A DNA stretch of 64,000 nucleotides from Escherichia coli (GCF_024298765.1 NZ_CP101210.1); one strand, 5' to 3'; counted from the stretch's first letter, positions 30,237-43,220 are shown. Program-made: numbers and translations. Notes: generated from the letters alone by a model not told the origin.

Positions 30237-32213
30237 ATGCAGCTTAATCATATCGTTAAAAGTCTGCTAATAACGGGATTATTCACCACCAGTTCTTTAC
30301 CTCTCCTCGCGGCGGAAGCTCCTAAAGACGCCACCGCAGCCACACAACAAGCAAACAATTTACTCTACAACCAGTTGCCGTTTGCCGATAACACTGACTT
30401 TACTGATGCCCATAAAGGTTTTATTGCCCCTATCCCTCAAGACGTGATTAAGGGCGAACAAGGGAATGTTATCTGGGATCCACAACATTACGCTTTTATC
30501 AAAGAAGGCGATAAAGCCCCTGATACGGTGAATCCGAGTTTATGGCGTCAGGCGCAACTGATAAATATCAGCGGGTTATTCGAAGTAACTGAAGGTGTCT
30601 ATCAGATTCGCAATCTCGATCTATCAAATATGACCATCATTGAAGGCAAAGAGGGTATTACCGTCGTTGATCCCCTTGTTTCAGCAGAAACAGCCAAAGT
30701 GGGTATGGATCTCTATTACAAAAATCGCGGCAAAAAACCGGTAGTGGCGGTTATCTATACACACAGTCATGTCGATCACTACGGTGGTGTTCGTGGCGTA
30801 ATTGATGAAGCTGACGTTAAATCAGGCAAAGTTAAAATCTATGCGCCAGCCGGATTTTTGGAGGAAGCCGTTTCCGAAAACATCATGGCTGGCAATGTTA
30901 TGAGCCGACGAGCCAGTTATATGTATGGCAACTTATTGAAACCTGATGTTAAAGGCCAGGTGGGGGCTGGACTGGGAACGACTACTTCAGCAGGAACAGT
31001 CACGTTGATTGCTCCTACTAACTACATCACCAAAACCGGACAAATAGAAACTATTGACGGGTTGACTTATGATTTCCTGATGGCGCCAGGTTCTGAAGCG
31101 CCTTCTGAAATGCTGTGGTTTATTGAAGAAAAGAAACTGATCGAAACCGCTGAAGATGTCACGCACACCCTTCATAACACCTATTCGCTGCGTGGGGCTA
31201 AAATTCGCCAACCGCTGCCGTGGTCAAAATATATTAATGAAGCTCTCAATTTGTGGGGTGATAAAGCCGAGATTATTCTCGCTCAACATCACTGGCCAAC
31301 CTGGGGCAACGATAACGTGGTCAAACTGCTTAAAAGCCAGCGTGATTTGTATCGTTACATCAATGATCAAACTCTGCGCATGGCAAATCAAGGGATGACC
31401 CGTGATGAAATTGCCGCAAACTTTAAACTTCCCTCTTCACTGGCTAACACCTGGGCGAATCGCGGCTATTACGGTTCGGTAAGTCATGACGTGAAAGCAA
31501 CTTACGTGCTTTATCTCGGCTGGTTTGATGGTAACCCCGCGACGCTTGATGAACTGCCGCCAGAAGAAGGCGCAAAAAAATTCGTCGAGTATATGGGCGG
31601 TGCTGATGCCATTTTACAGAAAGCCAAACAGGATTATGACCAGGGTAATTTCCGCTGGGTTGCCCAAGTTGTTAGTAAGGTGGTGTTTGCCGATCCAAAC
31701 AACCAGGCAGCGAGAGATCTGGAAGCTGATGCGCTTGAGCAGTTAGGCTATCAGGCTGAATCTGGGCCGTGGCGTAATTTCTATCTCACTGGCGCACAGG
31801 AATTGCGTAATGGTGTACAAAAATTACCAACACCAAATACTGCCAGCCCAGACACCGTGCGTGCGATGACGCCGGAGATGTTCTTTGATTATCTTGCCGT
31901 CCATATTAATGGTGAGAAAGCGGCAGATGCCAAAACCGTGTTGAATTTCGATTTTGGTGAAGATGGCGGCACCTATAAAGTGGAGCTTGAAAATGGTGTT
32001 CTCAATCATACAGCTGGTGTAGAGGCTTCGGATGCTGATGCCACTATCACTCTGTCTCGTGATGTATTGAACAAAATTGTACTGAAAGAAGAGACGCTGA
32101 AAGAAGCCACGGCCAAAGGAGATGTCAAAATTACTGGCAATGCGGAAAAACTCAACGAGCTGTTAGGTTATATGGATAATTTTGAATTTTGGTTCAATAT
32201 AGTGACACCATAA
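30237..32213 (+). CDS. Secreted MBL-fold alkyl/aryl-sulfatase-like protein (SdsA1/YjcS family)
   Basis: 658-aa ORF; N-terminal signal peptide; metallo-beta-lactamase motif THSHVDHYGG; C-terminal SCP2-like region; not part of the K-12 gene order at this position as I recall it. Confidence 0.8.
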   Translation: MQLNHIVKSLLITGLFTTSSLPLLAAEAPKDATAATQQANNLLYNQLPFADNTDFTDAHKGFIAPIPQDVIKGEQGNVIWDPQHYAFIKEGDKAPDTVNPSLWRQAQLINISGLFEVTEGVYQIRNLDLSNMTIIEGKEGITVVDPLVSAETAKVGMDLYYKNRGKKPVVAVIYTHSHVDHYGGVRGVIDEADVKSGKVKIYAPAGFLEEAVSENIMAGNVMSRRASYMYGNLLKPDVKGQVGAGLGTTTSAGTVTLIAPTNYITKTGQIETIDGLTYDFLMAPGSEAPSEMLWFIEEKKLIETAEDVTHTLHNTYSLRGAKIRQPLPWSKYINEALNLWGDKAEIILAQHHWPTWGNDNVVKLLKSQRDLYRYINDQTLRMANQGMTRDEIAANFKLPSSLANTWANRGYYGSVSHDVKATYVLYLGWFDGNPATLDELPPEEGAKKFVEYMGGADAILQKAKQDYDQGNFRWVAQVVSKVVFADPNNQAARDLEADALEQLGYQAESGPWRNFYLTGAQELRNGVQKLPTPNTASPDTVRAMTPEMFFDYLAVHINGEKAADAKTVLNFDFGEDGGTYKVELENGVLNHTAGVEASDADATITLSRDVLNKIVLKEETLKEATAKGDVKITGNAEKLNELLGYMDNFEFWFNIVTP

Positions 32214-32227
32214 ATTTACTGCATACC

Positions 32228-32250
32228 GGGCAGGTATCCTGCCCTTTTTT
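32228..32250 (+). terminator. Rho-independent terminator after the sulfatase-like gene
   Basis: Hairpin gggcagg-tatc-ctgccc followed by tttttt. Confidence 0.75.
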
Positions 32251-32307
32251 GGTTAAAAAATGGCTGAACGAAGAAAAACGCATCACTCATGGAAAACCCG
32301 CCGCGAT

Positions 32308-33357
32308 ATGGTTATTCGCGGCATGACGATTAGTTTGCCATGGTTTGCTTTTATCAATGTCAGTTTTGCATTGATAATTTTGCTGCGCCGTGTTCTGTTT
32401 AATGACCTTACTCCACCCTGGTTAAATGAAAAAAGCCTTATACATTCTATTGATATATCTGCAACGGGTATTCTGCTAATTTGCAGTGGTTTACTACTCA
32501 TCCCTCGGCAAAAAACATTACCTATCCAGGTGCTATTAGTTGCCCTGAGCCTGCTATGGTCATGGTGTAGTTATCACTTTATTGCGTACTGGACGCTGCA
32601 GTTTGCTTATCCACTATGTGTATTATTAATGCTTAGTGGCGTTGTCGCACTTTATTTCCATACCCCATCATTGCTCGCATTTGTCATTCCCTTATGGTTC
32701 ACCACTCCAATAGCGAGTCTTATGCTTAATCAACAGATCAATATTCATTTTGCTGTTGTATGGTGTATTTTTTCACTGGCGCTATATGGTGGGCGACTCA
32801 TTTTGTTACGTTGGTTTGAAGAAGCATGGGTACAAAACAGTTATAACAACCAGTTAATTAATCGCCTTGATGCATTAGCACATCGTGATCCTTTAACTGG
32901 GATAGCAAACCGACGTGCAATGAACAGTATCTTACACGACGCGATAGATAACGGCGGGTCATTTGCTCTTATTATGCTGGATGTCGATTTTTTTAAACGT
33001 TACAACGACACTTACGGGCATCCTGCTGGGGATCGTTGTCTAATACAAGTTGCCGACGCTCTACAGCGTTCAACTCGCCAGTCGGAGGATGTTGTTGTCC
33101 GTTATGGTGGCGAAGAGTTTGCCATCATACTTTTTAATGCAACATTGCCGGAAGCAGAGACGGTAGCAGCCAGAGTGAAGCAAGAACTTAAACTGGCAGC
33201 TATCCCACATCAGGCATCTGCTGTTAATGCATTCGTTACGGTTAGTCAGGGGATTACCTGTTCTGCTCCCGCAAAAACGGCTGAACAAATTATTTCAGAT
33301 GCCGACGCTGCGTTATACCGGGCGAAAGAAAGTGGGCGAAATCGATGGGCTTTATAA
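32308..33357 (+). CDS. Membrane-anchored diguanylate cyclase (GGEEF), accessory
   Basis: ORF track gives 32260..33357 (365 aa); about 200 aa of polytopic membrane N-terminus followed by a GGDEF domain with an RYGGEEF active site and an I-site-like RxxD. Start uncertain because the ATG at 32260 directly abuts the upstream terminator; 32308 (MVIRGM...) is an alternative. Confidence 0.8.
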   Translation: MVIRGMTISLPWFAFINVSFALIILLRRVLFNDLTPPWLNEKSLIHSIDISATGILLICSGLLLIPRQKTLPIQVLLVALSLLWSWCSYHFIAYWTLQFAYPLCVLLMLSGVVALYFHTPSLLAFVIPLWFTTPIASLMLNQQINIHFAVVWCIFSLALYGGRLILLRWFEEAWVQNSYNNQLINRLDALAHRDPLTGIANRRAMNSILHDAIDNGGSFALIMLDVDFFKRYNDTYGHPAGDRCLIQVADALQRSTRQSEDVVVRYGGEEFAIILFNATLPEAETVAARVKQELKLAAIPHQASAVNAFVTVSQGITCSAPAKTAEQIISDADAALYRAKESGRNRWAL

Positions 33358-33430: not shown

Positions 33431-33982
33431 CTATCTTCTTAGCGATGTCTTTCTGGTATCACATTGGATCGGTGCAATTATTTTTCCTTTAATACCCATT
33501 ATGTTAAGAAATTCAGAAACAGCTGTAATCTCATTGGTTTTTTCATTCGTCTTGATCTTCCAAGGAATCTGACTGTGCATTATTGAGAACACACTAATAA
33601 CGTGAATCGCTCCCTTGCGACGACTCTTGTCATAAGAGTACCGGAGCGTTTTTCCATCAATTGCAATGACGTCTTTATCATCTGAAGAATGGCAGTCAAG
33701 CATCCAGTTAATAAAGCACTCATGAAATTTTGCAGGACTGATACAGGATACAACTCTGGCAATGGTATCGTGAACAGGAATACCATTATCAAAATCACCA
33801 TATTGCTTCAAAAAATCGAGATGTGTTTCCCCAAAATCCTCTATATCTTCCCAGCCTTCTGCACCCGAAATAACGGCACAAATAGTCAACAGTAGAATAT
33901 CCGATAATTTATGTTCCACTTTCCAGGCTTGTCTGTAATCGGGGATAATAGAAATATGTTCCATCAATTTTTTAAGTTCCAT
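33431..33982 (-). pseudogene. ydcC: Truncated H-repeat-associated (ISAs1-family transposase-like) gene, N-terminal fragment
   Basis: 183-aa ORF matching only the N-terminal half of the roughly 378-aa H-repeat protein; the remainder is missing where the DGC gene begins. Confidence 0.7.
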
Positions 33983-34222: not shown

Positions 34223-34552
34223 ATGGCTGAACACGATATTACGCCAGAAGTCGCCATTTCCAAAACACAGCGCCGCTATAAAGTCGGCTATGTCAGAGCC
34301 CGCCACATAAACAGCAAAACCTACATGACCACGTACTACTCACGACACCCCAGCCTGAACCTTAAGGGCGACTGGCTGAAAGAGGCCGGATTTGATACCG
34401 GACGGGGTGTCACGGTGAAGATTTCGGAGGGGTGCCTGACCATCATCGCTGACAGTGACGAGGTGCAGGAACTGCGGGAGGAACTTTATCAGGTTAAACA
34501 GGTGGTTAAGGGGATGCGGAACGGGATGTTTAGTGTGCTGAACGAGAATTAA
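34223..34552 (+). CDS. SymE-family type I toxin-like protein (AbrB/SpoVT-fold)
   Basis: 109-aa ORF with RBS agagg; core LKGDWLKEAGFDTGRGVTVKISEGCLTIIA closely parallels E. coli SymE as I recall it ([30 protein letters not shown]). Confidence 0.65.
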   Translation: MAEHDITPEVAISKTQRRYKVGYVRARHINSKTYMTTYYSRHPSLNLKGDWLKEAGFDTGRGVTVKISEGCLTIIADSDEVQELREELYQVKQVVKGMRNGMFSVLNEN

Positions 34553-34602: not shown

Positions 34603-34905
34603 CTAAAAAGGTAATAATCCTCTAATAGGAGAAAATTTTGTAATATCAATACCTTGTAATTTAAAGTAATTAAAAGCATCTTCTATATTGGAAAACGCAC
34701 TAATTTCTTCAGTTGCATAATCTTCGAACACTTCCATTTTATTTTCTGGTATTTTGAAAAAATAGGTATTGTATTTTTCATCCTGTTTTTTAATGGCATA
34801 TTGGAAAAAATAACTTTCACCATTTATTTCCTTTATCTCATCAAAACCTCTAACCTTACCATTCTCTATAGCAACAATTAATTTTTCAATAGACAAATCA
34901 ACCAT
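34603..34905 (-). CDS. Putative Rhs toxin immunity protein
   Basis: 100-aa acidic, AT-rich ORF; start overlaps the toxin-tip stop by 8 nt; strong RBS (gagga). Confidence 0.6.
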   Translation of the reverse strand: MVDLSIEKLIVAIENGKVRGFDEIKEINGESYFFQYAIKKQDEKYNTYFFKIPENKMEVFEDYATEEISAFSNIEDAFNYFKLQGIDITKFSPIRGLLPF

Positions 34906-35312
34906 CTATATCTATCCTCACCATTGTCCCATCAGAACGTTTAATATTTATATGAGGCAAAGAACCATGCCCTGTGCCTTTATGGTCATCATGACCATAT
35001 ACACGACCAGTATTAGAATCAATAGGGTAACCTTTCCTATAACGGACAGTACCATCTCTTTTCTTAAATTGTTCCATCTTATGTTTTTTTCTAATACCGG
35101 CGGCATCCTGCGAACCGATCCCTCTTACTTTTTGAGCATCAGGAAAGGCCTCCATCAATAAATCATGGGCTTCCTGTTTTGATTTAACTGTGACAACGGT
35201 TCCTTGAGGCCCCTCTCGCAAAGATTTCGCGTTTTTGGAACATGCAGTCAGTCCCAGCGGATCGATCCAAGAGAGCGGATTCGGCGCGTATTGGTAGAGG
35301 TTTATTCCCCCC
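34898..35312 (-). CDS. Rhs C-terminal segment (core end INLYQYAPNPLSWIDPLGL plus variable toxin tip), out of frame with the Rhs core ORF
   Basis: Reading frame B on the minus strand gives GGINLYQYAPNPLSWIDPLGL followed by about 117 aa of His-rich variable tip (YGHDDHKGTGHGSLPH); it is joined to the core only if the G7 run at 35307..35313 is read as G6. Confidence 0.65.
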
Positions 35313-38300
35313 CGCTAACCCTATCGGATCCGTTACCATGAACCGCCCGACATCCGGATCATAGTACCTGTGCAGATTGTAATGCAGTCCCGTTTCCCTG
35401 TCGAGGTACTGTCCCTGGTAGCGCAGGTTCTGCGCCACCCCGCCGTGGTCCTTCTCCTGTATCGTGTTACCCCAGACCTGATACCCCGTCTCCCACACGA
35501 TTTTCCCGTCACTGTCCGTCATCTCTTCCGGCGCGCCGTTCACATCCGTGTGAAAATACAGTATCCGGTTCGGGCCCTCTTTGCCCGCCTTATCCACCCG
35601 CGCCAGCGGTTCATAACTCCCCGGGTCCCTGTAGATGTACAGGCTGTCTGTTCCCTCCGGCCTGCTCTCCTGCGCCAGCCGCATTCCGTCCCATAAAAAT
35701 GCCGTCCGGTTGTACGGTTTACCGTCAGGGCTGATGTGCTGTTTTTCCGTCCGCCTCCCCAGCGCATCGTACACATACCGGTACGTTCCCCGCGCTGTCG
35801 TCACTTCCACCATCCGGTGTTCCGCATCATAACGGTAACTCTGCGTGCCGCTCCGCCCCTCCTTTTCCACCGCACGGCCAAATTCGTCGTAACGGTAGTG
35901 CACACCACGGTAAGACATCAGCCGGTTGAACGGCACCACGCTGTTTTCTGCCGTGGCCCTTTCCCCCGCGCGCCGCCCCAGCAGGTTTCCCGCCGCGTCG
36001 TACTGCCAGCTCGCCAGATACCCCTCATCCTCCGAGCGGCACGCCGTGATGCGCCCCGTGGGGTCGTAGAAGTAATCCGTTTCCCCCCGCCGGCTGTGCC
36101 GCGTCTTCAGCAGTTCATCCTCGCCACTGTAGCTGTACTGCCGGTCCGTGAACGTCTCCGGTACCACCCCGCGCATCCCGCTGTATGTCTCCCTGCGCTT
36201 CAGCCGCCCGGCGGGGTCGTAAAGCTGCCGCGTGCTCAGTCGCCCCTGACTTCTGAGCACTTCACGGTGCAGGGCGTCACGAGTGAACTCGCTGATGACC
36301 TCCCGGTCCAGATTTATCTGCTGGAGATGGCCGCTGCCGTAGTACAGATGACGCTGCGTTCTGCCGTCCGGAAAGGTGGTGGCTGTCCGGTTGCTGAGTT
36401 CATCGTACTGATGGGTCAGGACGCCCTGCGCCGTCTCCTCAGTCAGCATCCGCCCCAGTCTGTCGTAACTGAAACGGATAATCTCCGGTGCGTCTGTTTC
36501 CCCGGCATCCGACCGTCGGCGGCGGATTTCCAGTAACTGGTCTGCCGCATCATGGACGTATTCCGTACGGCTATCGGCTGTCTCCTTTGCCGTGAGCCGG
36601 CCCGCCGCATCACGTGCCAGCCGGTGGCGGATTTCACCGCCCCGGTCCCCGGTGAACACCACTTCCGTGACCGCGTTCAGCGCGTTGTAGCGGTACGTCT
36701 GGCGGCAGCCGTCCGGATTTATCTGCTCCGCCAGACGGTCCAGCACGTCATGGCGGAACCGGTAGCTTTCTCCGTTCTCGTTTGTCAGCGTGACCAGACG
36801 CCCGTAAGCATCGTACCCGAACGCCGTCCTGCGCCCCGTCGCGTCTGTCCGGCTGCGCACCCGGCCCTGCCCGTCCCGCTGCCAGCGCGTTATCCTCCCC
36901 ATCGGGCTGGTGTACTTCACCAGCCTGCCCGCCGCGTCCGACTGGTAATTCACCGTGCGGCCGTCCGCCAGTATCACCTCCGTCAGGTGGCCGCTGTCGT
37001 CATACCCGTAGCGCGTGCTGTGGCTCTGCGCGTCTGTCATCCGTATCAGCCGCGTGCGTTCGTCGTAGAACCAGGCCGTCTGCGAGCCGGAACAGTCCGT
37101 GTGCCGCATGAGCTGCCCGTCTTCGTTCCACTGAAGGTATTTATTCCCCCCGCGCGCATCGGTTATCTGCACCACCTGGCCGTGGCGGTCATACTGATAC
37201 CGGGTGTTCTGCTGCAGCGGGTCGGTCACCGCAAGAAGATTGCCGCGTTCATCGTACTCACAGCACCAGCTGTTCCCCGCCGCGTCCACCTCCGTTTCCG
37301 GCTGGTGCCACACCGGGTGCCACTGTGTCTGTGCCACCCGCCCCAGCGGGTCGTGCGTCTCCGTGATATGCCCCTGCCGGTCATACACATAGCGCCATTT
37401 GCCGCCCTGCGCATCGGTCATTCCCAGTAACAGCCGTTCTTCGTCGCTCCAGCGGAACGTCGTCACCTGCCCGGCTTCGTCCTGGTACGCCGTCACCTGA
37501 TTCTGCGCGTCCCACTGATGATAACGCGTGCGCCCCAGCCCGTCCGTCACGCACAGCCTGCGTGACGCCAGGCTCCACGCCAGCCGGTACTGTTCACCGC
37601 TGTCCGTGTGGTGCCCCGTCACCCGCCACGCTGCGTCATCCGGGCCTTCATACCAGCTCCACTGGTAATAATACCCTTCGCCGCCCGGCTGGCGGTGCAG
37701 GGTCATGCAGTGGTTTTCGTCGTAAGCAAACTCGCGCAGCAGGTGTCCCGTGCTGTCGTACACGCCGTTCAGGTCGCCGGCCTCGTCATAGCGGTAACGA
37801 CGCAGCAGTAAAGGAGCCGTCTCAGGGAAATGCTGATAAATCTGTGTCACCCGCCGGGGATGCGCCGCCAGTTCATAATGCAGACGGATGCACGGACGCT
37901 GCTGTTCACCGCTGATTTGCGTGATGCGCCCCAGCTCGTCGTAGTACAGATTCAGACAGTTGCTGTTGCGGTCGCCCAGCATTTTCAGCCGCTGGCGCTG
38001 CGGGTGATGCGGGTCGGCTTCAAACAGAAAAAACTGCCCGTCATCGCTGCTGATAAGCCAGTGCCCCTGCTCACCCCGCCTTACCGCCAGTCCTTCGCCG
38101 GGGCTGTAAAACCCGCTCCCCGGCAGCACGGCCTCCATATCCAGGCGTCGCCCCATGCCCGACACAAAGGTCATGCAGTTTTCGTCAGCAGTACCCGGCG
38201 TGCGCCCGAGGCTGACTTCATACATCACGCTCCAGCCCTGCCCGAACATCCCTTCCGTGCGGTCGTCACGACTGCTGTACACGCGCTGCCAGTCCAGCGG

Positions 38301-39560
38301 AAAGTGGCCCGGCAGACTGAAATCGAAGTCATCGTCATCGGCCAGATATTTGGCTCCGGTGGCGGCATTGACCGGATGCGGAAGGGCACTGATGGCCTTC
38401 TGCGTCATCACCCCCATCCCGACACTGGCAGCAAAACAGGCGATTTTAGAAAGCATTTTGCCCGGGCGAAGAAACATCAGCGCCACGGTTGCCACCAGGG
38501 TTATCTGCGACCTGCCGCTTCTGATATCCCTGACCACCAGTAACGGACCGCCAATGCGGACATCCGGTGACACAAACGCCCCGTTCCCCGGCTCATTCAC
38601 CACCCTGGCCTCGCAGGTGCAGCGTGCCCCGCTGCGTGCCGCCGGCTGGCTGTTGATACGCACATCCCGCGCGCCTTCCGCGATATATTCCGCTGCGGGC
38701 GGTTCATCATCGCCTTTGAACAGATTACTGATGCTGCCAATAACCGCATTCACTCCCTGAAAGGCGGTTTCCAGCATACCGTCCGGACTCAGCAGGTTAA
38801 GGGCCGTTCCCAGGGGGTCATCCAGAAAGGCGGCTTTTTTTTGTGCGAGAAACTGCGTCAGTGAGGAGGGATGTTTATGGCAGTCGATTTTATCGTCAGG
38901 GGTCGGGGTGGAGCCCGGGGCCGCACTGGCCACGGTGGGCTGCCATAGTTCCGACACAAAATGTGTCACGCCATCCACCATTTCAGAACGCCCTTCTTCC
39001 GTACTGAGCTGGTCGTGCAGCGCCCGGGACATCAGCACAGGCCCTGTCACCGGGTTAACCGCCAGGGCTATGGCCCCCGCCATTTCCAGATATTCCCCGG
39101 CCACATCCAGGAACGTTCTGGCATCCTCCTGACGCTGCGCTTCTTCCTGTTCCGCCTTCGCCTGCGCCTCCTGCGCCTCAATGTCCTGCCGCGATGCCGC
39201 AGTCGCCGCGGCCCGCGCGGCAGGTTTGCTGTTGATCCATGTGTCGCCAGAGCCGGTGAGGATGTAACCTTCAATCTGAGGCGGGAAAAGCATATTTGCG
39301 AGGTCTGAACAGACTTCGCTGACCGTGTCTGTCACGCCGGTGTACACCATCGCCACACCCGCCACAAAACCGGTCAGCACGACGGCCGTGCACCCCATCG
39401 TGATCCCCACTGACGCCGCCAGTAACGAGGTTGTGCCGACAATGAGGGCATCAATAACGACATTTGCGGCCACCTCCAGCACCGCCCCCAGCACATCTGC
39501 CATAAACGACGTATGCAGCAGGGCATCACCCTGCCTTGCCGCCCAGAATGCCTCTTCCAT
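35184..39560 (-). CDS. Rhs-family T6SS effector core (prePAAR motif, TM helices, PAAR, YD repeats), as the ORF in the present frame
   Basis: 1458-aa ORF; N-terminus MEEAFWAARQGDALLH matches the prePAAR AARxxDxxxH motif; hydrophobic helices follow; literal PAAR motifs; numerous YD/RHS repeats; core end RYYDPDVGRFMVTDPIGLAGG; after the G-run the frame runs 41 unrelated codons to a stop at 35184. Occupies the K-12 rhsE position by synteny. Confidence 0.85.
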   Translation of the reverse strand: MEEAFWAARQGDALLHTSFMADVLGAVLEVAANVVIDALIVGTTSLLAASVGITMGCTAVVLTGFVAGVAMVYTGVTDTVSEVCSDLANMLFPPQIEGYILTGSGDTWINSKPAARAAATAASRQDIEAQEAQAKAEQEEAQRQEDARTFLDVAGEYLEMAGAIALAVNPVTGPVLMSRALHDQLSTEEGRSEMVDGVTHFVSELWQPTVASAAPGSTPTPDDKIDCHKHPSSLTQFLAQKKAAFLDDPLGTALNLLSPDGMLETAFQGVNAVIGSISNLFKGDDEPPAAEYIAEGARDVRINSQPAARSGARCTCEARVVNEPGNGAFVSPDVRIGGPLLVVRDIRSGRSQITLVATVALMFLRPGKMLSKIACFAASVGMGVMTQKAISALPHPVNAATGAKYLADDDDFDFSLPGHFPLDWQRVYSSRDDRTEGMFGQGWSVMYEVSLGRTPGTADENCMTFVSGMGRRLDMEAVLPGSGFYSPGEGLAVRRGEQGHWLISSDDGQFFLFEADPHHPQRQRLKMLGDRNSNCLNLYYDELGRITQISGEQQRPCIRLHYELAAHPRRVTQIYQHFPETAPLLLRRYRYDEAGDLNGVYDSTGHLLREFAYDENHCMTLHRQPGGEGYYYQWSWYEGPDDAAWRVTGHHTDSGEQYRLAWSLASRRLCVTDGLGRTRYHQWDAQNQVTAYQDEAGQVTTFRWSDEERLLLGMTDAQGGKWRYVYDRQGHITETHDPLGRVAQTQWHPVWHQPETEVDAAGNSWCCEYDERGNLLAVTDPLQQNTRYQYDRHGQVVQITDARGGNKYLQWNEDGQLMRHTDCSGSQTAWFYDERTRLIRMTDAQSHSTRYGYDDSGHLTEVILADGRTVNYQSDAAGRLVKYTSPMGRITRWQRDGQGRVRSRTDATGRRTAFGYDAYGRLVTLTNENGESYRFRHDVLDRLAEQINPDGCRQTYRYNALNAVTEVVFTGDRGGEIRHRLARDAAGRLTAKETADSRTEYVHDAADQLLEIRRRRSDAGETDAPEIIRFSYDRLGRMLTEETAQGVLTHQYDELSNRTATTFPDGRTQRHLYYGSGHLQQINLDREVISEFTRDALHREVLRSQGRLSTRQLYDPAGRLKRRETYSGMRGVVPETFTDRQYSYSGEDELLKTRHSRRGETDYFYDPTGRITACRSEDEGYLASWQYDAAGNLLGRRAGERATAENSVVPFNRLMSYRGVHYRYDEFGRAVEKEGRSGTQSYRYDAEHRMVEVTTARGTYRYVYDALGRRTEKQHISPDGKPYNRTAFLWDGMRLAQESRPEGTDSLYIYRDPGSYEPLARVDKAGKEGPNRILYFHTDVNGAPEEMTDSDGKIVWETGYQVWGNTIQEKDHGGVAQNLRYQGQYLDRETGLHYNLHRYYDPDVGRFMVTDPIGLAGGNKPLPIRAESALLDRSAGTDCMFQKREIFARGASRNRCHS

Positions 39561-39578
39561 GTCCCGTTCCCTGTGTGA

Positions 39579-40031
39579 TTAATTCGTCCCGGCTTCCTGC
39601 CGCATCCTGAAGCGCAGATTCTTTTTAATTTCAGCCCAGCGCGTCATATCTGCCGGGGTCAGCGGTGTGGTTCGGGCGTAGGTGAAGGCCATCATGACCC
39701 GCTCACCCGGCAATACAAATGCCACCTGACACTGGTACACCTGCTCGTTACCCCGGAGAAACTGGCTCTGTATTTCCAGTCCTTCTTCACCGTCATTAAT
39801 CCCCACCCGTGTTACCTGAACGGGCGTGTAGTGAAGATCCTTTACCTGTTTCTCCAGTTTTTTCATTTGCTGTTCAATCTGGGAGGCTAATTCGTCTCCT
39901 TCCTGCATCTGGCCCCGGCTGATAATGAGTGCAGCGTCGGGATCGCTGAGGCGCAGCATATTAATAGTACTGTCCTGAATAATATTCCCGGAAAAAGTTA
40001 CAACAGTTTCATTGAGATAATACTCCGTCAT
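39579..40031 (-). CDS. DUF1795 (Eag-family) effector chaperone
   Basis: 150-aa ORF immediately upstream of the prePAAR Rhs gene; size and position typical of Eag chaperones. Confidence 0.7.
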   Translation of the reverse strand: MTEYYLNETVVTFSGNIIQDSTINMLRLSDPDAALIISRGQMQEGDELASQIEQQMKKLEKQVKDLHYTPVQVTRVGINDGEEGLEIQSQFLRGNEQVYQCQVAFVLPGERVMMAFTYARTTPLTPADMTRWAEIKKNLRFRMRQEAGTN

Positions 40032-40081
40032 AATGATATGAGTCCTTTTAAATTAATAAATTATTTAATGATGGTTTTTGT

Positions 40082-42076
40082 TTATTTTTTAGTCATGAAG
40101 GCGACATCTATCGCCAATTGAAGGGCTGTTTTTTCCGATGTTCCTGGCGGAAGTATATCTGCCGCCCTGTTATTCATATTTAAATCAAGCTGACCTGATT
40201 GTGTATTTATCTTTCCATTTTCTGTTGCAGTAATATTAAAATTCTTACAGGTTATATTAAATATTCCGTCACTGGTCATTTGCAGGATAGTGTTCCCACA
40301 ACTAAGAATTATGGAATCTCCCGCAGCAAGGCGTAAATTCTGTACGGCCTGAATCGTTTTATTTTGTCCGGCAAGGGAGGTATCATCCATCTGAACTGTA
40401 AGAGAACGTTCCTCACCAATTATCGCTGTTTCTGTTTTATCAATGACTTTAAGGCGATTATTGCCCACCCAGTGGCTTTCATTATTATTTACTTCAATGC
40501 GTTGATCTTTCTCGGCATGCAACCAGATTTCTTCTCCGCCAGTTTTATCCTCAAAACGCAAGGCGTTAGCATTGGTCGGGCCGCCGCCGATAGTGTGGCT
40601 GTAAAACCCGCTTTGCGTCGCTGCGCCCGGTAGTCCCCACGGTGGCATGGTGTCCTGATTGTAGGTACGCCCAACGATTATCGGTAAATCCGGATCACCG
40701 TTTTTGAAATCCACCAGTACTTCCTGACCAATGCGCGGGATCTGAATGCCACCGAATCCTTTACCCGCCCACGGATAACTGACACGGACCCAGCAGGAAC
40801 TATTTTCGTCATTCTTACCGTAACGATCCCAGCCAAACTGAACTTTCACCCGGCCATATTTATCTGTCCAGATTTCCTGCCCTGCCGGGCCGGTGACGAT
40901 GGCGCTCTGCGGGCCTTTAGTGTGGGGTTTGCTCAGGGTTCGTTGTGGGCGGTAAACTTCGCTGGTGGGATGCAGTTCAAAGCTGGTTGAGTAAGAGAAA
41001 TGCTGCTCCTGGCCGCTGTGTTGCGCATTGTCCTGTATAAATAGCGTGGTCTGTACCAGCAGATATTCCCGGTTCACTTCGGCTGTCGGATAGTTTTCCA
41101 GGGTGAAGGTAAAACCTGTCATCAGGGTACGAATATTGCCGCTGCCCTGTACCCGACTACCTGGGCTACGCTGTTCTTCCATGCGAATGCGTGTCAGCAT
41201 TTCACCTTCACTCTTTGTGAAGTAATCTCCCGGCCATTCGTAGTGCTCATATTCAGCAAGGCCGGTTTCACGCGGATTAGCCACGGTGCTCTTCAGCAGT
41301 GAACGCGGCTTCATAAAGTCGAAATCATTCAGCACCCACTGTCCGCTGCGCAGACTTTCATTTGCTGTGATGGTATGGATAAACTCCTTGTCCAGTTTCA
41401 GCCCTTTCTGGTAATAACACACCAGCGGCGAATCTGCGCATGCCTTGTGGACATTAATGGCATCAGCCAGCACTAACGTGTGACTGTTCTCGCTGTGCTC
41501 AAACCACCAGTAGATACCCCACTCCTGCATCAGGCGCTGAACAAAATCGAAATCTGTTTCACCGTACTGCACCTGCCAGGCGCGAGTCGGATAATTTTCC
41601 ACCAGTCGTTTTTCCACTGGCCAGGGGTACTCATCCAGTACCTCATCCAGGATCTCCACCACGTTTTTATTCTGAAACGCTTTGTAGTCACTAGTGTGGG
41701 TCAGTATTTTTAACCACGGTTCGAGCCGCAGTTCATACACCACCGAACGTCCTTGATGACCAGCCACGCGTGCCGCCGTCACCAGCCCGCTGATATAACG
41801 TTTTCCGCCGCCATCCAATTCGATATTGACGCACAGATCTTTGCCCACCATCGGTTTGAGCTGCAGGTTGGCTGCGGGGGAAACATAGCCCAGGTTCAGG
41901 ATGTCAGGAGTTTTTAATTTAATAGAATAAGTAAATAGTTCCCCTACTGTTTCTGTACCCCCTAAGCTTGCAAACAGTAACATTCCATCAGGAACTGCGC
42001 TGCCGCTCAAAGTCACGTTATGTGTACCCGATCCAGTTAGTGCGCCGGATGGATAATCTGTAGCTGCAAAACTCAT
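40082..42076 (-). CDS. vgrG: Type VI secretion spike protein VgrG
   Basis: 664-aa ORF; gp27/gp5-like architecture; directly precedes the Eag-Rhs genes. Confidence 0.85.
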
Positions 42077-42297: not shown

Positions 42298-42654
42298 TTA
42301 TTTGATATGATTATCATCAAGTCTTAAAATACGTTCTCCGGTTCTAATTATGCTAAAACCATAGTATTCTTTTTTACTTCCGGAAGAGAGCATATATTTC
42401 CCTATATACATAACATCTGAAGATAGCTCACTTATATCAATACATACGGGTTCGAACTGACCTGTCACTCTTTTCAACTTTATTGCATTGCCATATTTAC
42501 CTTCATATAAAACATAATTTGAAATAATATTCCCATCGTCTGGTTTTGAACAAATCTGTCCGTCTTGCAAATATACACTACCGGGTAACAATGGGCGAAC
42601 ATAATCACCAACAGTGCATCCCGACAAAAAGAAAAACAAAAAGAATCTCTTCAT
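42298..42654 (-). CDS. Small lipoprotein of unknown function (candidate immunity protein)
   Basis: 118-aa ORF; signal peptide with lipobox FLSGC; AT-rich; start overlaps the stop of the upstream HExxH gene (ATGA). Confidence 0.6.
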   Translation of the reverse strand: MKRFFLFFFLSGCTVGDYVRPLLPGSVYLQDGQICSKPDDGNIISNYVLYEGKYGNAIKLKRVTGQFEPVCIDISELSSDVMYIGKYMLSSGSKKEYYGFSIIRTGERILRLDDNHIK

Positions 42655-43220
42655 ATGACACCCGCAGGAAATAAATTAAGCACCTTTTTGTATTTTTCCG
42701 ATAGAGTGTTCACTGATTCAGTTGTATCACCTACATAGTTAACATTTGCCAAATCAGCCACCAGTCCATAGTTAATTAATAGCCAATAATCAACAACTAT
42801 AGATGCTTGTTGTTCCATGGAATAAGAAGAAATTGACTGTAAATTAAGATCGTAATGATAATTTGCCGCCCAAGAAAATAAACCACGCAACTTAACTGCA
42901 TACCCTTTCTGATATTGCCAAACATGCATCATTTCATGAATAAACAAGTGAGAAGCACCTGCTACTGTTTCACGATCACCAGGCATTGCTTGCGATGAAT
43001 AATCTGAACTATAAACAGCATCAGGATAATACATTTCCCCGTTTGGGGTCATCGCTGTTCTTTCCCCTTGACCAGGCAAATATTTTTCATTGTGGATCCA
43101 TACCTTGCTATAATCAATTGTATTCTCAAAAATCGATCTGGCCAATGTTAATTCACCAGATGTCATTCTCCTTAATGACATATCCTTTCCCCTGGAAATA
43201 ATATCTTTCAGATAAAACAC
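42651..43220 (-). CDS. Cysteine-free HExxH zincin-like protein (candidate T6SS cargo effector)
   Basis: 189-aa ORF (alternative start at Met14, position 43181); single HEMMH motif within ASHLFIHEMMHVWQYQ; no signal peptide; AT-rich; translationally coupled to the lipoprotein gene. Confidence 0.55.
   Translation of the reverse strand: MFYLKDIISRGKDMSLRRMTSGELTLARSIFENTIDYSKVWIHNEKYLPGQGERTAMTPNGEMYYPDAVYSSDYSSQAMPGDRETVAGASHLFIHEMMHVWQYQKGYAVKLRGLFSWAANYHYDLNLQSISSYSMEQQASIVVDYWLLINYGLVADLANVNYVGDTTESVNTLSEKYKKVLNLFPAGVI

Follow-up and report, generated by a model that had tools for sequence, protein, structure and literature searches.

A probably degenerate auxiliary type VI secretion effector island, with its Rhs toxin out of frame after a seven-G run, in an Escherichia coli lineage that includes ST117

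We analyzed a 64-kb stretch of Escherichia coli DNA, called the window here, which carries a module of the kind that accompanies a type VI secretion system (T6SS) between positions 34603 and 42076. The module is built around a VgrG spike, an Eag-family chaperone and an Rhs effector with prePAAR and PAAR motifs, and E. coli APEC17 is colinear with the whole window, with 99.98-99.99% identity across all 64 kb. All open reading frames (ORFs) of the module run in the same direction on the minus strand, and the coordinates and co-directional arrangement given in a preliminary description of this DNA were correct. That description counted four genes, but we found five ORFs: the one overlapping the Rhs gene is a cut-off toxin, and the immunity candidate is the next ORF. 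The features of the module are listed below.

40082..42076, minus strand: VgrG spike protein, 664 residues, intact; matched by Pfam and TIGR03361.
39579..40031, minus strand: Eag-family chaperone (DUF1795/DcrB), 150 residues, intact; matched by PF08786.
35184..39560, minus strand: frameshifted gene of putative class I prePAAR-TMD-PAAR-Rhs type (TMD, transmembrane domain); the 1458-residue ORF consists of 1418 in-frame residues and 40 out-of-frame residues.
35307..35313, minus strand: G7 homopolymer, site of a +1-nucleotide frameshift; the version with six G gives a single 1553-residue ORF.
34898..35306, minus strand: 3' part of the Rhs gene, cut off and in the +1 frame, with the remainder of the autoprotease and a 116-residue toxin domain.
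34898-35221, minus strand: toxin ORF as called mechanically from a TTG codon, 107 residues; RefSeq calls an 85-residue ORF.
34603..34905, minus strand: immunity protein candidate, 100 residues, no signal peptide, GC content 0.32.

Domain searches with profile hidden Markov models returned VgrG, DUF1795/DcrB, PAAR_motif and RHS matches. The VgrG protein contains gp27-like and gp5-like domains, with matches to Phage_GPD (E 2e-98), Phage_base_V and Gp5_trimer_C, and scores 561 bits with TIGR03361 against a cut-off of 186. The 150-residue product matches Pfam DcrB (PF08786, E 1e-18) over residues 19-137, and source databases label it 'DUF1795 domain-containing protein'. Its earlier designation as a chaperone of DUF1795 size is borne out, as is that of the spike. 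An identical chaperone (WP_000141612.1) adjoins an intact Rhs gene in strain MEI003.

The 1458-residue ORF had been described as an Rhs effector with a prePAAR motif, hydrophobic helices, PAAR motifs and YD repeats. These elements are present, but the ORF is not intact. Residues 7-16 (AARQGDALLH) fit the prePAAR motif AARxxDxxxH as defined in PMC7773334, and a simple Kyte-Doolittle hydropathy profile (window 19), which is not a trained transmembrane predictor, gave residues 18-78 as the sole hydrophobic region. PAAR strings occur at residues 113 and 306. When the protein was split into parts for the Pfam search, PAAR_motif matched at 291-321 with E 4e-5 and at 97-118 with E 2.9; the NCBIfam model T6SS_PAAR_dom reached 18.5 bits, far under its cut-off of 124. 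Because the two strings lie about 190 residues apart, the PAAR domain appears from its sequence to be split or divergent. This gap is unusually long, and the linker within it, at 39291-39466, is a low-complexity Ala/Glu/Gln stretch (AQEAQAKAEQEEAQRQE) that is masked by BLAST, so that matches to the protein come in two pieces with 98% coverage. The remainder contains DUF6531 and RHS repeats (Pfam RHS_repeat and RHS, PF03527), with YD_repeat_2x in 11 stretches and Rhs_assc_core at 68.8 bits. Measured against the class definitions of Ahmad et al. 2020 (PMC7773334), the gene qualifies as a class I prePAAR Rhs effector. The kind of locus was thus recognized correctly from the start: an auxiliary T6SS island with VgrG, Eag and prePAAR Rhs genes at the position of K-12 rhsE.

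Three-frame translation showed that the Rhs frame switches at the seven-G run at 35307-35313. After ...VTDPIGLAGG, the Rhs ORF reads NKPLPIRAESALLDRSAGTD... and reaches a stop 40 codons on, while the +1 frame continues GGINLYQYAPNPLSWIDPLGL-TACSKNAKSL...RIDIDG to its own stop codon and includes the 116-residue toxin domain. Removal of one G produces an uninterrupted ORF of 1553 residues, in which DPIGL at 1411 and DPLGL at 1433 are separated by 17 residues. The frameshift is positioned between these two DPxGL motifs, with the second motif (PLSWIDPLGL) and the toxin in the +1 frame, and no continuous ORF runs from the Rhs core through both motifs into the toxin. Jurenas et al. 2021 placed the catalytic Asp of the autoprotease in the second DPxGL motif and found that toxicity requires cleavage (PMC8636562). 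By sequence comparison, the DPxGL pair of the repaired ORF matches the aspartyl-autoprotease signature described by those authors. The module was originally called complete, which cannot be maintained: its Rhs ORF is frameshifted at G7 and ends in 40 out-of-frame residues, and RefSeq flags the gene as a 'frameshifted' pseudogene in the identical loci of APEC17 and 2009C-3133. RefSeq is inconsistent on this point, because the same sequence is called a plain 1458-residue coding sequence in KKo009 (L005 15762-20138 versus L001 12740-17061), and some genomes name the product DUF6531 domain-containing protein.

The small ORF at 34898-35221 overlaps the Rhs ORF by 38 nucleotides and had been taken for an immunity-like gene. 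Because the G7 run shifts the frame, and deletion of one G joins the toxin to the Rhs protein, this ORF is the severed toxin domain and not the immunity gene; its homologs agree. A search of 1.84 billion representative proteins gave 91 relatives of the toxin domain (clusters at 50% identity). In the long carriers, the domain forms the extreme C-terminus, following Rhs DPxGL motifs, Hint domains or other carriers, and the close relatives P0004, P0007 and P0010 have the DPxGL-toxin junction in frame. The domain had no Pfam match and no sequence match in the Protein Data Bank (PDB), and neither its sequence nor its fold significantly matched the named polymorphic-toxin Pfam families or solved toxin folds. 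An alignment of 50 toxin domains showed that Asp73 is kept in at least 90% of the sequences; the window has Gly at this position, and the in-frame orphan copies retain Asp73. The E. coli protein P0003, with 27 member sequences, has the toxin fused in frame to the middle of the core (...YRYDEFGRAVEKEG|PQGTVVTVKSK...), and this fusion removes the end of the cage together with both DPxGL motifs.

The next ORF, at 34603-34905, overlaps the stop codon of the toxin (ATGGTTGA) and encodes 100 residues that match neither Pfam nor NCBIfam. Diverged toxin homologs are immediately followed by homologs of this ORF, whose divergence keeps pace with that of the toxin: where the toxin is 84% identical the downstream ORF is 68% identical, and where the toxin is 75% identical it is 45% identical. 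The toxin and its partner also occur as a single read-through ORF, P0013. This gene order and co-divergence suggest that 34603-34905 is likely to be the immunity gene. Prior work indicates that prePAAR effectors act in the cytoplasm as a rule (PMC8636562). Since the immunity candidate has no signal peptide and prePAAR effectors usually act there, the target of the toxin is likely cytoplasmic.

The same lesion recurs in many genomes. A 96-nucleotide junction containing seven G was found exactly in 66 complete E. coli genomes, and the six-G version was exact in one, MEI003. With main-core sequence upstream, the counts were 66 for seven G and 0 of 5426 complete genomes for six G. The carriers were sampled from chicken, turkey, pig, dog, human and water, and because the junction is exact in 66 complete genomes of such varied sources, the seventh G is not a sequencing error. 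A collection of 15 billion proteins contained no exact match to the repaired 1553-residue protein, and a word-based protein search found no in-frame attached toxin, only short ORFs of at most 195 residues. The 85-residue and 107-residue toxin ORFs are recorded on more than 1000 and 284 contigs, respectively. In a metagenome pattern scan, the attached tip was either 7G or G6A3, the latter on contig L019, where the run is shorter and the frameshift is kept; six G appeared in the orphan arrangement only (contig L017). We rejected a length variant in strain 181.1 as an assembly error, as six homopolymer or dinucleotide runs spread over the region are each one or two bases short in this assembly. 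Metagenome contig L018 (OERJ01000659.1, 5076-5112) has the same TTAGCGGGGGGGAATAAAC junction with seven G joined to a different Rhs toxin tip, which may reflect carry-over during tip exchange, a second origin or a chimeric contig.

In MEI003, the same chromosomal site has an intact 1552-residue Rhs gene, then one other orphan and, last, the toxin/immunity tip as an orphan. Over 40 kb of flanking DNA that includes housekeeping genes, two seven-G carriers matched the window at 99.96% identity, and the corresponding values were 93.6-96.8% for K-12 and 98.7% for MEI003. Because the two checked carriers are this close to the window compared with K-12, the flanks point to one clonal lineage through which the frameshift and the Asp73Gly substitution, as read in these genomes, have spread. 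That lineage includes sequence type (ST) 117, since APEC O2-211, which is ST117 (PMC6256689), carries seven G. Genomes of the lineage also have a second locus, found for example in 13P477T (NZ_CP019273.1, 2104978-2105199), which bears the annotation HNH/endonuclease VII fold polymorphic toxin. It is 90% similar to the decayed 5' leader of the orphan in MEI003, so a further Rhs orphan, with a comparable leader, exists at another place in the chromosome.

Judging from the annotation of the colinear APEC17 sequence, there is no T6SS core gene within the window, in agreement with the preliminary description, which proposed that the module relies on a T6SS encoded elsewhere. We found that the aspV island of APEC17 contains no T6SS; what it carries is a decayed contact-dependent inhibition (CDI) locus along with further island genes. 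A full cluster is located at the metV tRNA genes of this strain and comprises tssB, C, K, L, tagL, hcp, tssH, vgrG, tssM, tssA, PAAR, tssF, G, J and E. However, tssH (clpV) measures 2626 nucleotides, compared with 2637 in other E. coli (L012 22865-25490, which is APEC17 NZ_CP178203.1 3912864-3915489). An 11-bp deletion at nucleotide 1398 (GAGCAGGACAG) stops the protein at residue 484 of 878. This allele is 100% identical in at least 40 of the genomes listed, many of them also seven-G carriers; counted at 99% identity or more, there are 75 genomes. The proposed reliance on another T6SS thus has a candidate cluster to rest on, but one with a frameshifted core gene. The absence of a functional T6SS from the genome, which had been named as the situation that would make the module a relic, is therefore close to what we observed, given that the only cluster found at the aspV and metV islands has this defect. 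A large survey assigned T6SS-i2 to ST117, and ST117 was not among the sequence types listed with several systems (bioRxiv 10.1101/2025.01.23.634537). We found no report of a tssH or rhs frameshift in ST117 in the literature searched, which is an incomplete selection. The CDI locus of APEC17 (L009 48409 to L010 12305) has a frameshifted cdiB and a cdiA with an internal stop that is also split by IS66. A second contact-dependent weapon system is therefore broken in this strain.

Directly upstream of vgrG, we found two further genes that are absent from the preliminary description.

42651..43181, minus strand: metallopeptidase cargo effector candidate, 176 residues from an ATG; the mechanical GTG ORF reaches 43220; HEMMH motif.
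42298..42654, minus strand: lipoprotein-like immunity candidate for the metallopeptidase, 118 residues, with a signal peptide and the lipobox ...FFLSGC.

The 176-residue protein has no Pfam match. A profile built from 35 homologs matched the effector domain of Pseudomonas aeruginosa VgrG2b (PDB 6H56) with E 2e-33, and Foldseek aligned its AlphaFold 2 model (mean predicted local distance difference test score of 93) to the same structure with a probability of 1.00, a template-modeling score of 0.65 and 34% identity. H82, E83 and H86 of the HExxH motif are invariant among the homologs, one of which is fused to a PAAR domain. The lipoprotein gene overlaps the metallopeptidase gene by 4 nucleotides, and its product matches NCBIfam NF045617, 'putative T6SS immunity periplasmic lipoprotein', with E 2e-7, under the curated cut-off. 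Wood et al. 2019 described a small ORF downstream of each VgrG2b-domain homolog and noted or predicted the stand-alone arrangement for Enterobacteriaceae (PMC6899460). The window resembles the P. aeruginosa pair of VgrG2b C-terminal metallopeptidase and PA0261 immunity protein in sequence, fold, HExxH motif and a small lipoprotein gene next to it (PMC6899460; 6H56). It differs in that the P. aeruginosa domain is an extension of VgrG, whereas the protein in the window is stand-alone cargo. Thus, 42298-43181 is a candidate for a second, intact-looking effector/immunity pair, and its two genes belong to the island. Source databases mislabel this effector family as 'type IV secretion protein Rhs'.

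Together, these results make it likely that the locus is a degenerate auxiliary T6SS effector island with a recently inactivated Rhs effector, in an E. coli lineage that includes ST117. Going by the protein families, VgrG would serve as the spike, and the Eag chaperone would shield the N-terminal transmembrane helices of the class I prePAAR Rhs protein, whose PAAR domain would cap VgrG. The YD-repeat cage is predicted to enclose the C-terminal toxin until the aspartyl autoprotease, with its two DPxGL motifs, frees it in the target cytoplasm, and the 100-residue downstream protein would protect sister cells. The sequence itself shows that one extra G in a G6 run between the DPxGL motifs displaces the second motif and the entire toxin from the reading frame. 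Because the toxin is out of frame, the only product expected of the gene is an Rhs cage that lacks the toxin and ends in a nonsense tail of 40 residues. Any toxin translated from an internal TTG or ATG would be a cytoplasmic fragment outside the cage that could not be loaded. We infer that toxin delivery is lost as a consequence of the frameshift and the substitution.

Some of our observations weigh against this interpretation. Beyond the single frameshift, the 4.6-kb Rhs gene has no further stop or indel, and the VgrG, Eag and immunity genes are intact; the undamaged state of the rest of the module means that inactivation was recent or that the truncated cage is still useful. In principle, +1 ribosomal slippage or polymerase slippage could occasionally get past the G7 run. 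That Asp73Gly weakens the toxin is suggested by conservation only. The search for T6SS core genes in APEC17 covered the aspV and metV islands, and in certain species part of the T6SS activity does not need ClpV.

Other explanations have to be considered beside a recently inactivated island. The module could be complete and functional, delivering its toxin through a T6SS encoded elsewhere, as its four protein families with strong domain matches and the core cluster of a near-identical genome would allow. The reading frames contradict this, because the Rhs frame is lost ahead of the toxin and the supposed immunity ORF is the toxin. Moreover, the toxin has Gly at a near-invariant Asp, and tssH of the T6SS is itself frameshifted, so we regard a functional module as highly improbable. 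An artefact of sequencing or assembly in a gene that is really intact has next to no chance of being the explanation. Homopolymer errors are common, and assembly 181.1 shows them, but the same seven G recur in 66 independent complete genomes and two metagenome contigs, and the short toxin ORFs are found on hundreds of contigs or more; we therefore consider the artefact refuted.

It is also conceivable that the G run acts as a switch, with slipped-strand phase variation between seven and six G, or +1 ribosomal or transcriptional slippage, yielding some full-length toxin-bearing Rhs protein. The frameshift does lie in a homopolymer in an otherwise intact gene, a +1 slip of tRNA-Gly from GGG to GGG on GGG-GGG-G would need no mismatch and would restore A-G-G-I-N within the ancestral peptide AGGINLY, and contig L018 has the same seven-G junction with another toxin tip. 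The length of the tract is nevertheless constant, with seven G in 66 of 66 good matches and no attached six-G copy in 5426 genomes. The lone deviant assembly, that of 181.1, has shortened homopolymer and dinucleotide runs across the region, and the G6A3 variant of L019 shortens the run yet keeps the frameshift. Seven G are short for efficient slippage, the toxin also carries Asp73Gly, and no stimulatory element was noticed in the sequence, on which no dedicated scan was run. A switch therefore seems very unlikely to us. A disarmed Rhs protein might instead be retained for its structure, as a toxin-less PAAR cage that caps VgrG and is needed to fire the spike with other cargo, such as the metallopeptidase. 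The 1418 in-frame residues, VgrG, Eag and the metallopeptidase/immunity pair are all intact, as this would require. The Rhs cage itself is reportedly required for T6SS activity in Enterobacter cloacae. Set against this, tssH is frameshifted in the T6SS that was found in the lineage, the carriers are too alike (99.96-100%) for a test of purifying selection, and the 40-residue nonsense tail, together with loss of half of the C-terminal plug and of the autoprotease, may destabilize the cage. We consider such a structural role unlikely.

Recent inactivation of the island could also be one step in a broader process. On this tentative view, to which we assign a small chance, the ST117 lineage has put its contact-dependent weapons out of action one step at a time but has kept immunity genes and an Rhs cage without toxin. 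The lesions would be the 11-bp clpV deletion, the 1-nucleotide insertion that uncouples the toxin and an active-site substitution in the toxin, and the cage would be kept as a structural spike tip or behind a revertible G run. If so, ST117, a dominant avian-pathogenic and extra-intestinal E. coli clone, would offer a natural case in which selection acts against the firing of a weapon and not against its possession, and the toxin/immunity family would gain inactive (Gly73) and active (Asp73) alleles. At least 40 complete genomes have the frameshifted clpV and 66 have the uncoupled Rhs toxin, with many in both sets; therefore, surveys of presence and absence may overstate T6SS function in ST117. 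The locus also calls for caution in annotation, because the module is canonical by ORF sizes yet contains a pseudogene, and an ORF that is immunity-like by size and overlap is in fact the toxin.

VgrG-Eag-Rhs islands are a known and well-understood kind of system, and the architecture of this one is nothing new in itself. The uncharacterized part is the toxin family: the Rhs C-terminal domain and its 100-residue partner form a small toxin/immunity family for which there is neither a named domain nor a solved fold. Salmonella Rhs1/SciW, Pseudomonas protegens RhsA/EagR1 (PMC7773334) and Photorhabdus Rhs1/EagR (PMC8636562) have the same vgrG-eag-rhs-immunity order. These class I prePAAR systems and the window share the AARxxDxxxH N-terminus, a single transmembrane region, a PAAR region (split or divergent by its sequence in the window), the YD-repeat cage and a DPxGL pair 17 residues apart. 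In contrast to them, the window has a frame that is broken between the DPxGL motifs, a toxin outside the protein and a toxin family without a name. Orphan toxin/immunity arrays and C-terminal displacement in Rhs loci were described by Koskiniemi et al. 2014 (PLoS Genet), as cited in PMC10761095, a paper that deals with E. coli Rhs loci in enterotoxigenic strains. MEI003 has the same pair as its last orphan at the same chromosomal site, and the window looks, from sequence, like that array after fusion of the tip to the main gene. The MEI003 orphan copies have six G and Asp73, whereas the tip in the window is attached to a full-length core, one G out of frame.

The preliminary description also placed the module where K-12 carries the degenerate rhsE locus. 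The rhsE pseudogene does occupy the same ansP-pptA hotspot, closed by an H-repeat/ISAs1 element, and the K-12 locus is without vgrG and eag. The hotspot is shared but the gene is not orthologous. We rejected the idea that the window holds the intact counterpart of rhsE, since the cores are 30-40% identical at the protein level and have no nucleotide match; at this level of identity, K-12 rhsE is best classed as a different Rhs family at the same site. Decay of the T6SS has been reported in other E. coli lineages, with tssM::ISEc12 in ST131 (PMC10711316) and T6SS degeneration in O157:H7 (PMC12981562). As in those cases, a successful pathogenic lineage here has one broken T6SS core gene and broken effectors, but the lesions differ, being an 11-bp deletion in tssH and a 1-nucleotide insertion in rhs.

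Beyond the Rhs module, the window carries alkyl/aryl-sulfatase and GGDEF diguanylate cyclase genes on the plus strand at 30237-33357, between pptA and an ISAs1 remnant. K-12 has neither gene at this place, and its own yncG and yncH are missing from the site in the window. Three more features border the immunity gene and the end of the island.

34223..34552, plus strand: SymE-family type I toxin gene, convergent with the 100-residue immunity gene; NF010128 and RefSeq name.
34294-34422, minus strand: isrA antisense small RNA, Rfam RF01385, inside the SymE gene.
33431..33982, minus strand: ISAs1/H-repeat transposase remnant, which closes the island; RefSeq 'ISAs1 family transposase, frameshifted, incomplete'.

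The ISAs1 remnant is 92% identical to the K-12 H-repeat region. The SymE-family gene matches NF010128 with E 1e-13, under the cut-off, and the RefSeq name agrees with this assignment. The isrA sequence, from a family of Hfq-binding small RNAs, scores 118.8 bits with RF01385 against a gathering score of 51. In MEI003, a SymE-family gene comes after two of the three Rhs tip units, namely the main tip and the tip shared with the window, which suggests that a SymE/isrA toxin-antitoxin pair often travels along with Rhs tips.

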